Below are positions 14,738 through 20,241 of a stretch of DNA of 55,727 bases, one piece after another. Location: the NCBI GenBank assembly GCA_019058015.1, contig JAHLWH010000212.1:1-55727 (forward strand), given 5' to 3'. The position numbers and the translations under genes are program-made. Below the pieces are notes generated by a model. It worked only from the letters and a program-made list of their open reading frames with translations, was not told where the DNA came from and did no database searches. Source of the DNA: Promethearchaeota archaeon. Its GTDB lineage: Archaea; Asgardarchaeota; Lokiarchaeia; Sigyniarchaeales; SOKP01. How positions within the stretch are numbered: position 1 is the stretch's first letter; each line of letters opens with the position of its first letter.

Positions 14738-15277
14738 TCAGAATTTACTCCTTTTTACTGCTTGTTCTAACATAAATTTACAAAGAGTTTCAAAAACATT
14801 ATCTACATTGACATTATTTTTAGATGATATTTCTATCCAACCAGCTAAATTATTTTCTTGGGCTACTTGAATTCCATACTCTCGAGGAACCGATCTTTCA
14901 TGTTTTTCTAGATCCAATTTTGAACCTACTAACATAATGGGAATTAATCCACTTCTTTGATATACAATTGATAACCAAGAATGAATGTTCTCTAAAGTAT
15001 TTAATCTAGTAATGTCATACAAAAATATAGTTGCGTTAGCTCCTAAACAATATGTTGGCAAAAGGAATCGAAATCGCTGTTCGCCTCCAAGGTCCCATAT
15101 TTGCAGTTTGACTTTTTTGTCTAAGACTTCAACAGTTTTTATATAAAAATCCACTCCGATAGTCAGCTTCTCATCTGGGTTAAAAATGCCTTGGACATAT
15201 CGTCTCGTCAAACTCGTCTTTCCTACTGACGCTTCCCCCAACATAAGCACTTTAAAGGTATAATCGAAACTAGGCAT
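14738..15277 (-). CDS. Rab-like small GTPase
   Basis: G1 GEASVGKT, TIGVDF, KLQIWDLGG, RFRFL, G4 SKLD, G5 SSK; no C-terminal Cys prenylation motif. Confidence 0.92.
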   Translation of the reverse strand: MPSFDYTFKVLMLGEASVGKTSLTRRYVQGIFNPDEKLTIGVDFYIKTVEVLDKKVKLQIWDLGGEQRFRFLLPTYCLGANATIFLYDITRLNTLENIHSWLSIVYQRSGLIPIMLVGSKLDLEKHERSVPREYGIQVAQENNLAGWIEISSKNNVNVDNVFETLCKFMLEQAVKRSKF

Positions 15278-16274: not shown

Positions 16275-16679
16275 TTATTCACCTTGCAATTGTATATGGA
16301 GTTTTCTATTACGGGGGCCGTCAAATTCCGAAAACATAATTCCTTGCCACGTCCCTAATACTAATCTTTTATTGTTAATTAAGATCTCTAAAGAAGGACC
16401 AACCAGTGTAGATTTGATATGAGCATCAGAATTTCCCTCCATATGTCTAAATCTGGCATTTTGAGGAATTAATTTTCCTAAGAAATTTACTATATCTTTT
16501 TTAACGGAAGGGTCAGCATTTTCATTAATGGTTATTGCCGCTGTTGTATGTGGAACAAATAATCGACAAACACCATTTTGTATATTAGATTCTGATACAA
16601 TTTTATTTATATATCTTGTAATATCCATTAAAATCTCACGTTGAGGGGTATTTATATTAATTGTTTTTAGTTCAATCAT
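16275..16679 (-). CDS. yjbQ: YjbQ/UPF0047 family protein
   Basis: FVPHTTAAITINENADP, HMEGNSDAHIKS, LGTWQGI, EFDGPR. Confidence 0.93.
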   Translation of the reverse strand: MIELKTININTPQREILMDITRYINKIVSESNIQNGVCRLFVPHTTAAITINENADPSVKKDIVNFLGKLIPQNARFRHMEGNSDAHIKSTLVGPSLEILINNKRLVLGTWQGIMFSEFDGPRNRKLHIQLQGE

Positions 16680-16856
16680 TTAATTTTTACACCAATTCTA
16701 TATTATATTGAATGAATTTAAAAATTTAATTTTTTGAATTCAAAAACAATCATTACTTCCTTTGTATGAAGATTTTTGATGAAAACTTGAAGGAGATTTA
16801 TTTTCAATTATATCTTGAAATAAAATTAGGTAGAAATGGTTTTAAAAAAAGAAAAT

Positions 16857-17942
16857 TTATTTTTGGTTTAAATATTCATTCATTTCTATAGTAGAACTGG
16901 TTCGAATTAAAGATGCTTTAAAAAATTGGAAGCCAATATCATAATAGGAGCCATCTCCTCCGATATTAATAACATATGGAATATCTCCGTCAAATAATCC
17001 TTTAGTTTTTCTAATTTTATATGCAACTGAAATAGCTTCGGCAACAGTTGCACCAGATTCAAATAAATGATGAACCCATGGAACATTCCAAGAACTGACA
17101 TTATCCTTAGAAGTGGAAACCTCACTACAGCTCGTATTATTTACATAAACTATATTCTTACCTGCTACTTGGGTTGCTGCTGTAGCTAACTGGTTCAATA
17201 CCATTCCTGCTCCACACCCTGGGCATAACCCATGACCTGGTTGTAGATGCGTTTGTGGTTCTAACTTTTTTTGATTCAATTTATATAGATCACTCGGTTT
17301 TTCCGCTCCCATAACTTCAATTAAATTTCTTAATCTTTTATTACGTAATTCAGTAAAGTAAATTATTTGATCAATTTCCTTCTCTCGCATAGTTGGTCTA
17401 AAAAGATGCTTAAATTTGCCCATTGACTTCAAATATTCTATAAATATCACCCTATCAACATCCAACCCACGATAATATGAAAATTTGGGCAGACCATTTT
17501 TTACTCTAATTGTATAAAGAGGCCAATATCCACTGTCTGTTGCCATTTTTGCAACTTTTATTGCATCTCCTGCGGCATGTCGCCATCCTCTCATGCAATC
17601 AGAATAAGCTTGGATAAACGAGCCTCCATCTGTTTTTAATGCCTCAATTGTTTTTCCCATAAAATCATTAGGATATGCTGGATTTACAGTTGCTAAAAAT
17701 ATAGAATTACCTCCAAAAAATGCCATTGGAGTAACCAAATCTTGCTTGACTCCTATTTTTCCAGGGATTTTCTCTCCAGCTGGTCCTGTGGTTGTGGAAG
17801 CAAACGGTGGTGTAGCTCCGCTTTCTTGAATCCCTGTATTCATAAAGGCTTCATTATCATAATTAAAGAATAATACATTGCATTTCTCCTTTTTTGCAAG
17901 TAAATCTTCAATTTTAATAATATTTCTTTCTATTTTTTTCAT
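16857..17942 (-). CDS. porB: Pyruvate/2-oxoacid:ferredoxin oxidoreductase beta subunit, circularly permuted
   Basis: YDNEAFMNTGIQ...TP...TTT and DCMRGW...GYWPLY lie in the N-terminal half. PGHGLCPGCG, TSC, VPWVH and GGDG..YDIG lie in the C-terminal half, the reverse of the canonical order. Confidence 0.9.
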   Translation of the reverse strand: MKKIERNIIKIEDLLAKKEKCNVLFFNYDNEAFMNTGIQESGATPPFASTTTGPAGEKIPGKIGVKQDLVTPMAFFGGNSIFLATVNPAYPNDFMGKTIEALKTDGGSFIQAYSDCMRGWRHAAGDAIKVAKMATDSGYWPLYTIRVKNGLPKFSYYRGLDVDRVIFIEYLKSMGKFKHLFRPTMREKEIDQIIYFTELRNKRLRNLIEVMGAEKPSDLYKLNQKKLEPQTHLQPGHGLCPGCGAGMVLNQLATAATQVAGKNIVYVNNTSCSEVSTSKDNVSSWNVPWVHHLFESGATVAEAISVAYKIRKTKGLFDGDIPYVINIGGDGSYYDIGFQFFKASLIRTSSTIEMNEYLNQK

Positions 17943-17943
17943 A

Positions 17944-19167
17944 TTATATATCTACTCCATAGATTTTATTTTTCCTTTCTCTTACACCAAGATACATGTA
18001 GAGTTGACCTTTCATATCTTTTACTTTTCCTATTTTTTTTTTAGCTATATCAAATTCATCTCTCGTAACGTCTCGCCCACCCAAACCAACTATGAATGAC
18101 CTAAATAATGTTCCTAGGGGATATACCGCCGTTGCAATTGAAGATGAGAATGGTGGTATAAGATTATTTAATGAATCACTTTTTTCTAAAATAATCAATT
18201 TTTCAATATGATTCTCTTGGATTATTTTTTGTAATTCTTCATAAGGAAATGGGCGATATGCACGAATTTTAATTAGTCCAACATCTTTATTTTTTGTCAT
18301 CCAACTTATAATGTTACCGCACATGGAACCCATTGTAATAAATGCAGTTTTCGAGGAATTGTTTAAATTATATGTTTCTATCAAATGATATTCTCGACCA
18401 GTATCTTTCTTAAAGCGTTCAAAAGCTGCATTTATATAATTCAAAACTGGCTTTTTATCTACATCTAATCTCATTCTACCTTCCATAAAATAACTAGGAG
18501 TAACAATTCCACCCCAAGTTCCTGGATGTTCTGGATCAATATGATGTCTTGGTTTTTTTGGAGTTAAACTCTGGACGATCTTATCAGGGATTAATGTTAA
18601 TTGTTGAATAGAATGAGAAATAATAAATCCATCATGAACAAACATAGTAGGAAATAATGAATCTTCTGAAATCATCACGGATAAAATGGCAGAATCATAC
18701 GATTCTTGAACATTTTCAGAAACCAAACAATTCCAGCCAAAGTCAGTTAAAACAAATTCCCAAGAGTTCCATATTGATAAATTAGGAGCATTAAATGCCC
18801 TCGCAGAAATCATCATGGTTAATGGAACTCGCCAACCAACCGCCATAGGTAATGCTTCTGCCATTAATAAATATCCTTGTGAGGCAGTTGCTGTAAATGT
18901 TCTTGCTCCTGCAGCACAAGCAGCAGTAGAATAACTCATTGCAGCTAATTCAGATTCAACGTTAATAAAGGCTGCCTTTAATCTACCTTGATGCACAACA
19001 TCAGATAAACCTTCAACAGACTGAGTTTGTGGTGTAATTGGAAATGCACATATCACATCGGGATCTGTTTGTGTTACGGCTCCCGCAACAGCATAATTCC
19101 CTATCATTGCAGTTTTAATAGGTTCTTTAATTTCACTAAAAAATAATCTCATTGGTTCTATTGACAT
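17944..19167 (-). CDS. porA: Pyruvate/2-oxoacid:ferredoxin oxidoreductase alpha subunit
   Basis: GNYAVA, AFPITPQT, VESE, GARTFTATASQG, DGFIISH, YRPFP, GLGGRD. Confidence 0.92.
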   Translation of the reverse strand: MSIEPMRLFFSEIKEPIKTAMIGNYAVAGAVTQTDPDVICAFPITPQTQSVEGLSDVVHQGRLKAAFINVESELAAMSYSTAACAAGARTFTATASQGYLLMAEALPMAVGWRVPLTMMISARAFNAPNLSIWNSWEFVLTDFGWNCLVSENVQESYDSAILSVMISEDSLFPTMFVHDGFIISHSIQQLTLIPDKIVQSLTPKKPRHHIDPEHPGTWGGIVTPSYFMEGRMRLDVDKKPVLNYINAAFERFKKDTGREYHLIETYNLNNSSKTAFITMGSMCGNIISWMTKNKDVGLIKIRAYRPFPYEELQKIIQENHIEKLIILEKSDSLNNLIPPFSSSIATAVYPLGTLFRSFIVGLGGRDVTRDEFDIAKKKIGKVKDMKGQLYMYLGVRERKNKIYGVDI

Positions 19168-19269
19168 TTAGTTTTTACCTCTAATTATTATTTATATTAA
19201 ATTTTGGTTGGATTCTATTATAAAAAAATACATTTTTAACATAAAATAATTATCGCCATTTTCTGGAAT

Positions 19270-20241
19270 TTAACACGATATTAAATGGATTTTTGCTTTA
19301 GACGATATTGCCTTTACTGGGCATATATTCATACAATTTAAACAAGATTTGCAGTGAAATTGATCAATACCAGCCATATGCCATAATCCTTCATCATCTT
19401 TTTCTCTTAAAATAGAAAAATCTGGACAAATAAACCAGCATCTACCACAGTCTATACATATCTCCTTATCCCAGAGCATTTCTAATTCACTCCATGAACC
19501 CGTGTTAACTTGAGAACTTCCATATGCAATGATATCTTCATCACAATACCAAACTCCAGCTTTATCTAATTCTTGAAAACCGGGTTTTTCTGGTTCTACT
19601 TGTTGCCATAATACTTTTGTATCAGATGTTAAATCAAGTTCTACGTCGCTTTCATATAAACAAGTTGCTTCTATTGCGTGTTTTACTGCTATAATATTTT
19701 TCTCAACAATTTCTCCTTTAAATCTTTTCCTAATTGCTTCGGATAATTCTTCTAATGTAAAAAGGTGTGAAACATGAACCAATGCACCTAAAATTATTGT
19801 ATTAGTAATATTTCTCCCAAGAATTTCCAAAGCTATACTTGAAGCATCAATTCTTGCAATATTTATATCCTTTCTCTTAATAATGTTTTGAATTTCCGAT
19901 TCCTCCATTATAGAATTAACAATAAGCCATCCACCTTGAGGCATTCCTGCAGTAACATCTATTTCCCTCAATAAAGAATCATCTAAAACGGAAACTAAAT
20001 GAGGAGCGTAAACCTGTTCATTTGATCTAATTAAATCCTTATTAAAACTTAATCGAACATAACTTTCAGTAGGGCTACCAGCTCGTTCAGCACCAAATTT
20101 TGGCTGAGAAATACCATAGCCAGAAAAGGCTTCTACAGATAAATTGGAGGCTGTGACTCCTCCTTGACCACCTCTTGCATGAAACCTTAAGTTTATACAA
20201 TATTCTTTTAAGATTTCTTTTATTTTTTCTGGAGTAATCAT
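19270..20241 (-). CDS. 2-oxoacid:ferredoxin oxidoreductase gamma-delta fusion
   Basis: Gamma part: RFHARGGQGGVT, FGAERAGSP, NTIILGAL. Delta part: TGSW, CIDCGRCWFICP, CKSCLNCMNICP. Confidence 0.9.
   Translation of the reverse strand: MITPEKIKEILKEYCINLRFHARGGQGGVTASNLSVEAFSGYGISQPKFGAERAGSPTESYVRLSFNKDLIRSNEQVYAPHLVSVLDDSLLREIDVTAGMPQGGWLIVNSIMEESEIQNIIKRKDINIARIDASSIALEILGRNITNTIILGALVHVSHLFTLEELSEAIRKRFKGEIVEKNIIAVKHAIEATCLYESDVELDLTSDTKVLWQQVEPEKPGFQELDKAGVWYCDEDIIAYGSSQVNTGSWSELEMLWDKEICIDCGRCWFICPDFSILREKDDEGLWHMAGIDQFHCKSCLNCMNICPVKAISSKAKIHLISC

Follow-up and report, generated by a model that had tools for sequence, protein, structure and literature searches.

The window analysed here, the 55,727 nucleotides of contig JAHLWH010000212.1 (assembly GCA_019058015.1) from a Promethearchaeota archaeon of the class Lokiarchaeia, carries three closely spaced minus-strand genes, porGD, porA and cpB, for the subunits of a putative 2-oxoacid:ferredoxin oxidoreductase (OFOR). 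The last of them, cpB, encodes a PorB-like beta chain whose second half precedes its first. porGD (19270..20241; 323 residues) fuses the gamma part, which is the coenzyme A (CoA)-binding domain III, to the delta part, a ferredoxin domain with two [4Fe-4S] clusters; Pfam POR matches residues 24-190 and Fer4 families match residues 255-313, and in NCBIfam the PorC/KorC subfamily model reaches 149.7 bits (cut-off 81.1) and PorD/KorD 57.2 bits. The porA-like alpha gene (17944..19167; 407 residues), partner of the permuted beta, encodes PYR domain I and domain II; it matches Pfam POR_N at 1.1e-53 and PFOR_II at 8.9e-13, and its best NCBIfam match is PorA_Arch with 298.4 bits, under the cut-off of 550. 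cpB itself occupies 16857..17942, begins with ATG and runs for 361 residues plus stop. A sequence-only reading of the window had described this frame as uninterrupted and as starting 1 nt past the porA stop, and we find both to be so: there are no internal stops, and a single base lies between the TAA of porA and the ATG of cpB. All features of the window named below are likewise on the minus strand.

That reading had also proposed that the canonical second half of PorB comes first in this chain. The swapped order is real and far beyond chance, as matches to Protein Data Bank (PDB) chains, NCBIfam models and profile comparisons are all swapped. In a phmmer search against all PDB chains the best match is 9bt4_C, PorB of Methanosarcina acetivorans (E 1.7e-45), to which cpB aligns in two blocks, query 226-343 on chain 3-111 (independent E-value 3.9e-17) and query 22-193 on chain 118-282 (independent E-value 2.5e-25). 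The second-best match, the beta chain of oxalate oxidoreductase (OOR; 5c4i_C, E 1.9e-41), shows the same swapped order, and the NCBIfam models PorB, OOR-beta and VorB each match cpB as two stretches. Profile-profile comparison with hhalign, in which 38 family members were set against 56 canonical betas of 280-345 residues with a 311-residue reference, places cp 18-216 on canonical 123-310 (E 2.3e-50) and cp 222-347 on canonical 3-124 (E 6.2e-34). The two segments jointly cover canonical 3-310 of 311, so that homology extends over the whole length of the family. The swapped segments cover the parent, its old ends are joined and the new ends lie inside it, which is what defines a circular permutant.

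The chain can thus be divided into five parts. A new N-terminal extension (residues 1-17; 17892..17942) is followed by the canonical C-terminal part (residues 18-216; 17295..17891), assigned by hhalign and by its invariant residues, which holds the Mg/thiamine diphosphate (ThDP) segment N-Y-D-N-E...N-T-G-x-Q and the fourth cluster cysteine, Cys116. Then come the joint of old C-terminus to old N-terminus (residues 217-221; 17280..17294), which is the gap between the hhalign matches, and the canonical N-terminal part (residues 222-347; 16902..17279), assigned in the same way and holding C240, C243, C272, G329-D330-G331...D335-I336-G337...R347. A new C-terminal extension (residues 348-361; 16860..16901) completes the chain. 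Where a linker of about 28 residues (roughly 205-232) had been suggested, only these five residues are new: the canonical tail continues to cp 216 and the N-terminal arm begins at cp 222. The position of the break was read correctly from the start. It maps to canonical 123/124, the E-R of the ERG loop, between GDG and the strand that precedes D-N-E and hence within the GDG-x26-N motif, and canonical positions 123/124 are matched at both ends of cpB, a two-position overlap. All ThDP enzymes carry GDG-x(~26)-N as their signature motif. In cpB its first half, GDG (residues 329-331; 16950..16958; invariant in 38 of 38 sequences), and its second half (residues 27-39, NYDNEAFMNTGIQ; 17826..17864) stand at opposite ends of the chain rather than 26 residues apart.

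The two extensions, 17 residues at the N-terminus and 14 at the C-terminus, are new as had been claimed: neither resembles canonical betas to any significant degree, the comparison with the canonical profile giving E 0.15 and E 0.16, respectively. We considered whether they are the remnant of a duplicated helix, for a forced global alignment put the N-extension and the C-end both on the canonical helix after GDG. Local profile alignment does not bear this out: residues 1-22 give E 0.15, residues 344-361 E 0.16 and the N-end against the C-end E 0.091, leaving the two-position overlap only.

In the 38 aligned family sequences, which reach down to 51% identity, the motif residues named by the sequence-only reading lie where it had located them and are all invariant: N27-Y28-D29-N30-E31, A32, N35-T36-G37 and Q39 in the second half of the motif, G138/P141/L142, and G329-D330-G331 with D335-I336-G337. 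The four cysteines C240, C243, C272 and C116 are likewise invariant and align to cysteines of 9bt4_C and 5c4i_C; we take them to be the ligands of the proximal [4Fe-4S] cluster, as in the pyruvate:ferredoxin oxidoreductase (PFOR) of D. africanus. Scored by the majority residue, the two canonical parts reach a conservation of 0.73 and 0.78, against 0.59 for the joint and 0.53-0.54 for the new ends (mean column conservation of the N-terminal extension, 0.54). By the Nei-Gojobori method, the ratio of non-synonymous to synonymous substitution rates (dN/dS) of cpB in three same-genus pairs is 0.084, 0.120 and 0.100, and around the joint (residues 194-225) it is 0.02-0.15; the C-terminal stretch, with 18 codons, is too short to be judged in this way. 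cpB is kept by purifying selection. In the alpha partner, T45, E71-S72-E73 and R123 are invariant in 12 sequences, and these are presumably substrate-binding and cofactor-activating residues.

AlphaFold2, run on the 38-sequence alignment, returns one compact model of cpB (pTM 0.86, mean pLDDT 80.2), in which the N-terminal extension forms a strand (6-10) and a helix (11-15) at pLDDT 77-95 and the C-terminal helix extends to residue 354. Foldseek finds 9bt4_C as the best match of this model (E 8.2e-11), followed by OOR beta chains (to 1e-6). The complex with PorA, whose prediction had been proposed as a check, is also predicted: the alpha-cpB pair scores an ipSAE of 0.82 in three runs vs 0.00 for the best of 3 controls. 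The same mark is attained by 58 of 80 solved complexes, as against 2 of 110 mismatched pairs. As PorA-PorB complexes have been solved, this pass shows likeness to known structures rather than proof of binding. The three runs share at least 98% of contacts, with partner pLDDT of at least 84. The predicted interface comprises cpB residues 262-358, including 351, 355 and 357-358 of the new tail, and cpB 339-343, just after GDG, touch alpha 71-75, beside the invariant E71-S72-E73. The tail at the new C-terminus may have gained a role as an additional contact to PorA. No obvious co-adapted insertion facing the tail is found in the alpha subunit when it is set against the two canonical alphas of the same genome, from which it differs only by an N-terminal extension of about 11 residues and a 4-residue insert.

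Distribution and integrity of the permuted gene

A search among 5.8 billion clustered proteins found 190 homologues of cpB, of which 120 are listed, at 52-98% identity. When the two halves were aligned separately, as had been suggested, the permuted order was present in all 120 listed. A look for the same order in other Asgard genomes had also been suggested, and in six-frame translations of 400 genomes from the phylum, collinear matches at E <= 1e-40 recover it in 131, among them five single-contig genomes (G135, G138, G143, G188 and G279). Within Lokiarchaeia, the class of the window, and with its own genome excluded, cpB occurs in 129 of 160 genomes; by family, again without the window's genome, the counts are 107/134 (f1), 1/1 (f2), 12/14 (f3), 4/4 (f4), 1/3 (f5), 2/2 (f6) and 2/2 (f7). 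Outside the class it occurs in one of 239 genomes, G075, as a contig-end fragment 75% identical to the window's protein. This genome of another class also holds, with the fragment on its contigs C23 and C29, two alphas 83-84% identical to that of the window. The cpB and alphas of G075 are probably bin contamination by Loki-type DNA, to judge from these identities. In a library of representatives at 50% identity (1.84 billion proteins), the best 150 matches add a single full-length permuted representative, P0121 (named Helarchaeota), besides fragments.

Does the assembly of the window hold across the internal junction, at about 17250-17330? Logan contigs of four studies cross it, and no joints are reported there. 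A 26-kb contig (X5) and a 16.6-kb contig (X7) both cover 16748-19400, a 1.1-kb contig (X11) covers 16968-18078 and a 482-base contig (X10) covers 17199-17680; between them the contigs of the four studies bridge both the joint at 17280-17294 and the porA-cpB boundary. The permutation is genuine, old, conserved, selected and characteristic of one Asgard class.

The gene neighbourhood is conserved along with the permutation. Among 12 loci from more distant families, the order GD-A-cpB is found in 10 and A-cpB in 11, and in four of four close loci, which are shorter and reach GD only at its 3' end, A-cpB comes after that end. Inside the class, alpha partners share 58-100% identity; genomes elsewhere in the phylum reach 34-40% at most, and no alpha above 40% identity was found outside the class. 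Therefore, the whole operon is a class-specific lineage without a close un-permuted sister.

Some relatives differ in detail. In two loci (L054, G162:C1:39140-40452; L055, G274:C195:2820-4141) cpB is interrupted by 30 extra bases behind gene base 112, within N-T-G|I-Q-E; the insert holds an in-frame TGA and the region folds with a z of -3.67. The cpB of the window is without it. A seemingly natural fusion of alpha and cpB in G258, a frame of 715 residues, was rejected, as it is produced by a 100-N scaffold gap (L057, G258:C34, 2101-2200). Downstream on the same contig (3752-3958), a stretch of 69 residues is 45% identical to cpB 264-332 and lies outside any open reading frame (ORF) of at least 50 residues.

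Function, origin and competing explanations

We consider it likely that cpB, in a circularly permuted chain, supplies a three-gene POR/VOR-type OFOR with its beta subunit, namely the PP domain that binds ThDP and the proximal [4Fe-4S] cluster. It is regarded as functional because of its conservation, the purifying selection on it, its operon context and the predicted alpha-beta interface. In the folded protein the two halves would rebuild the usual PP domain, and D330 of GDG and D29/N30 of NYDNE, coming from opposite ends of the chain, would together hold Mg-ThDP where the PP domain meets the PYR domain of PorA. C240, C243, C272 and C116 would hold a cluster whose electrons travel via the two delta-part clusters to ferredoxin, while the enzyme would use CoA to oxidise a small 2-oxoacid, giving acyl-CoA and CO2. 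Pyruvate is our best guess for the substrate, offered tentatively. The best-scoring NCBIfam models for all three subunits are those of pyruvate enzymes (PorB 200.5, PorA_Arch 298.4 and POR gamma 155.3 bits).

The origin of the permutation was approached with a FastTree phylogeny of 109 betas, 19 permuted and 90 canonical, which remained after 62 of 171 inputs that covered fewer than 110 of 185 or fewer than 80 of 123 profile positions had been dropped. All 19 permuted sequences group together as a single clade (support 1.0), set off by a stem of 0.80 substitutions per site. We infer a single origin of the permutation, at the base of Lokiarchaeia or close to it. The most likely route would be an in-frame tandem porB-porB fusion whose outer parts were then lost, because the old ends are joined by 5 residues and the break shows a two-position overlap. 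A candidate for an un-permuted sister lineage, the Bacillota-named alpha-beta fusions that FastTree places next to the clade across the 0.80 stem, was set aside as probably long-branch noise. Stand-alone "C-half" proteins of about 185-200 residues were likewise considered as split intermediates and rejected, for they look like truncated gene calls; several of these C-half-only matches of about 190 residues start inside the ERG segment or without Met.

Taken together, we lean, by a modest degree of confidence, towards the view that cpB represents the first natural circular permutation inside the ThDP PP domain, its chain ends lying within the GDG...N motif itself, that a single event at the root of Lokiarchaeia fixed it through tandem duplication and trimming, and that cpB works as the beta subunit of the pyruvate:ferredoxin oxidoreductase of this class, including its cultured strains. 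Several observations weigh against our main reading of cpB and its origin. The same genome encodes two POR/VOR-type betas in canonical order, one on contig C83 (414 bits) and one on C18 (396 bits to the VorB subfamily model), and therefore the permuted enzyme is not needed a priori for pyruvate oxidation; two KOR/OFOR-type betas are encoded there as well. The conserved neighbours in the 12 loci give no metabolic hint, the only recurring ones being a weak PD-(D/E)XK-like family (5 of 12 loci) and a histone (3 of 12). Linkage to the operon is not universal: in the single contig of G279 (C1) cpB lies at 1502548-1503603, about 0.54 Mb from GD-A near 2045958-2048100, and in G164 and G270 GD-A is present with no cpB behind it before the contig ends. 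The predicted fold has a weak spot, as residues 32-68, the loop after NYDNE, fall below pLDDT 50 (elsewhere only 275-279 do), and the Foldseek TM values of 0.40-0.49, as expected for a sequential aligner on a permutant, are no proof of the whole fold. Finally, the tandem beta-beta intermediate is missing, none of the 150 best representatives having more than two matched stretches.

At one of the two loci without cpB (L052, G164:C65, 3295-4112; the other is L051, G270:C54), two opposite-strand ORFs of 145 and 127 residues occupy its place and the contig ends soon after. By eye this pair resembles a HEPN/nucleotidyltransferase pair.

Could the enzyme serve something other than pyruvate oxidation? 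The permutation may be tied, in an OFOR that is functional, to a new specificity or direction, such as another 2-oxoacid or reductive carboxylation, with the new ends as a gate or as an alpha contact. The operon is a divergent lineage, its alpha being at most 40% identical outside the class, all three subunits stay under the cut-offs of their best-matching equivalog models, tail residues 351, 355 and 357-358 lie in the predicted alpha interface, and two canonical VOR/POR-type enzymes coexist in the genome. Yet the best models are those of pyruvate enzymes, no neighbour suggests another substrate, and the extensions, at 0.53-0.54, are the least conserved parts of the chain. We regard a change of specificity or direction as rather unlikely.

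A different route to the same chain, by fission of the gene, a swap in gene order and re-fusion, or by a mobile-element rearrangement in the motif, would replace tandem duplication and truncation. The closest canonical-order matches to cpB (P0125, P0133, P0168, P0169, P0181 and P0138) are PorBs with a large intein just before Y-D-N-E; P0138 has two, one after GGDG and one after Y-M-N, and members of the P0125 cluster are named Altiarchaeales. Mobile elements do, then, target this motif, and the 30-base insert of two relatives within N-T-G|I-Q-E and the missing tandem protein among the 150 best representatives speak for such a route as well. However, the intein site lies about 8 residues from the break of cpB and not at it, the C-half-only matches look like truncated gene calls, and the 5-residue joint with the two-position overlap is exactly what an externally trimmed in-frame tandem fusion predicts. 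Fission and re-fusion therefore strike us as a doubtful account of the origin, with tandem duplication and trimming the preferred one.

Much less probable is that cpB is a decayed, non-catalytic relic, which would not bind ThDP and would play a structural or regulatory part at most. In the sequence the hallmark motif is split, the curated models stay under their cut-offs, canonical POR/VOR-type paralogues exist in the same genome and AlphaFold2 is unsure of the loop 32-68, all of which a relic would explain; a relic would not be expected to keep every Mg/ThDP and cluster residue invariant down to 51% identity at a dN/dS of about 0.1, in a gene translationally coupled to a conserved alpha with invariant T45, E71-S72-E73 and R123. 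An error of assembly or binning, in which two parts of an ordinary porB ended up in each other's place, can be practically dismissed. The window's assembly is indeed fragmented (283 contigs), and scaffolding errors do occur in relatives, such as the 100-N run of G258 behind the spurious alpha-beta fusion frame. Yet 131 genomes, the five single-contig ones among them, share the permuted order, as do all 120 listed protein clusters, which come from several sources, and contigs of 26 kb, 16.6 kb, 1.1 kb and 0.48 kb from four studies cross the joint; this refutes an artefact unless all assemblies share one error.

Around the operon, a T-rich stretch read from the sequence lies directly 3' of the cpB stop (16841..16856) and is likely the end of the transcription unit, possibly acting as a terminator. 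Immediately downstream of cpB lies a UPF0047 gene (16275-16679; Pfam 4e-44), whose position next to cpB is kept in the same-genus loci L011 and L012 and not in distant loci. Members of this family have been annotated as secondary thiamine-phosphate synthase, which would be a link to thiamine. Near the operon, at 14738-15277, an ORF of 179 residues shows small-GTPase motifs by eye, and two distant genomes have relatives of it, 33-36% identical, a few kb away from their copies of the operon (L041, 10240-10740; L042, 10579-11085).

Annotation, significance and relation to known systems

The sequence-only reading had predicted that motif-based annotation would miss such a gene, and it does. Pfam TPP_enzyme_C covers only residues 16-111 of cpB, which match the second half of that domain, with 23 bits vs a cut-off of 21.9, and the NCBIfam scores stay below every cut-off: PorB (NF008819) 200.5 vs 405, VorB 162.7 vs 405 and OOR-beta 174.4 vs 590. 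Among the listed homologues, all 27 rows named by NCBI read "hypothetical protein", and the 14 rows named by JGI read "pyruvate/2-oxoacid:ferredoxin oxidoreductase beta subunit". Given this "hypothetical" naming and that Pfam sees a third of cpB at threshold, metabolic reconstructions of Asgard archaea can show an OFOR without its catalytic beta, which a dedicated family model would fix.

The conserved cut inside GDG...N would mark a place at which the PP fold accepts new chain ends, a guide for split or permuted designs. Should cpB indeed be a working, naturally permuted PP domain, it would be natural proof that the ThDP site tolerates a break of the backbone. The permutation is also a rare genomic change, usable as a marker of the class because of its apparent single origin and near-exclusive distribution (129 of 160 genomes in the class vs essentially none outside). 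Members with single-contig genomes exist, and therefore work on biochemistry and structure is feasible. The gene should be of interest to specialists of ThDP enzymes and of OFORs and to annotators.

The claim that no such chain had been described stands: a search of full-text literature, its scope being texts outside subscription-only journals and supplements, found no permuted OFOR beta and no permutation within the ThDP PP domain. Six passages on 2-oxoacids and 2-oxoacid:ferredoxin oxidoreductases in the paper on the first cultured Asgard archaeon make no mention of a permutation (PMC7015854), and the main text of the paper on TEED, the database of domain arrangements in ThDP enzymes, contains no word starting with "permut" (PMC2831816).

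How does cpB compare with characterised systems? Its closest counterpart of solved structure is PorB of M. acetivorans (9bt4 chain C), a subunit of a four-subunit PFOR. Both chains have GDG, Y-D-N-E...N-T-G-I-Q and the four aligned cysteines, and both are encoded after porA. Unlike the M. acetivorans chain, cpB is rotated, with the equivalent of 118-282 ahead of 3-111, and it has new ends of 17 and 14 residues and the 5-residue joint; moreover, gamma and delta are fused in the window. In this last respect the locus is closer to the oxalate oxidoreductase of Moorella thermoacetica (5c4i, 5exd, 5exe), which also has three subunits, the third fusing domain III to the ferredoxin domain, and the GD protein of the window aligns to the OOR delta model over residues 52-314. 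In contrast to cpB, the OOR beta is in canonical order, and the subunits of the window stay below the cut-offs of the OOR models (alpha 137 vs 500, beta 174.4 vs 590, delta 66.3 vs 230). OOR presumably has an arginine where the alpha of the window has T45.

Natural circular permutants are known in other folds, among them DNA methyltransferases, transaldolases and swaposins, and a model of duplication and truncation accounts for their origin. cpB resembles them in that two segments are swapped, a short linker joins the old ends and the functional residues are retained. Within ThDP enzymes, the rearrangements of PYR and PP domains catalogued in the TEED database involve the same two cofactor domains in varied linear order; these are shuffles of whole domains, whereas cpB is cut inside the PP domain and inside the Mg-ThDP motif itself (PMC2831816).

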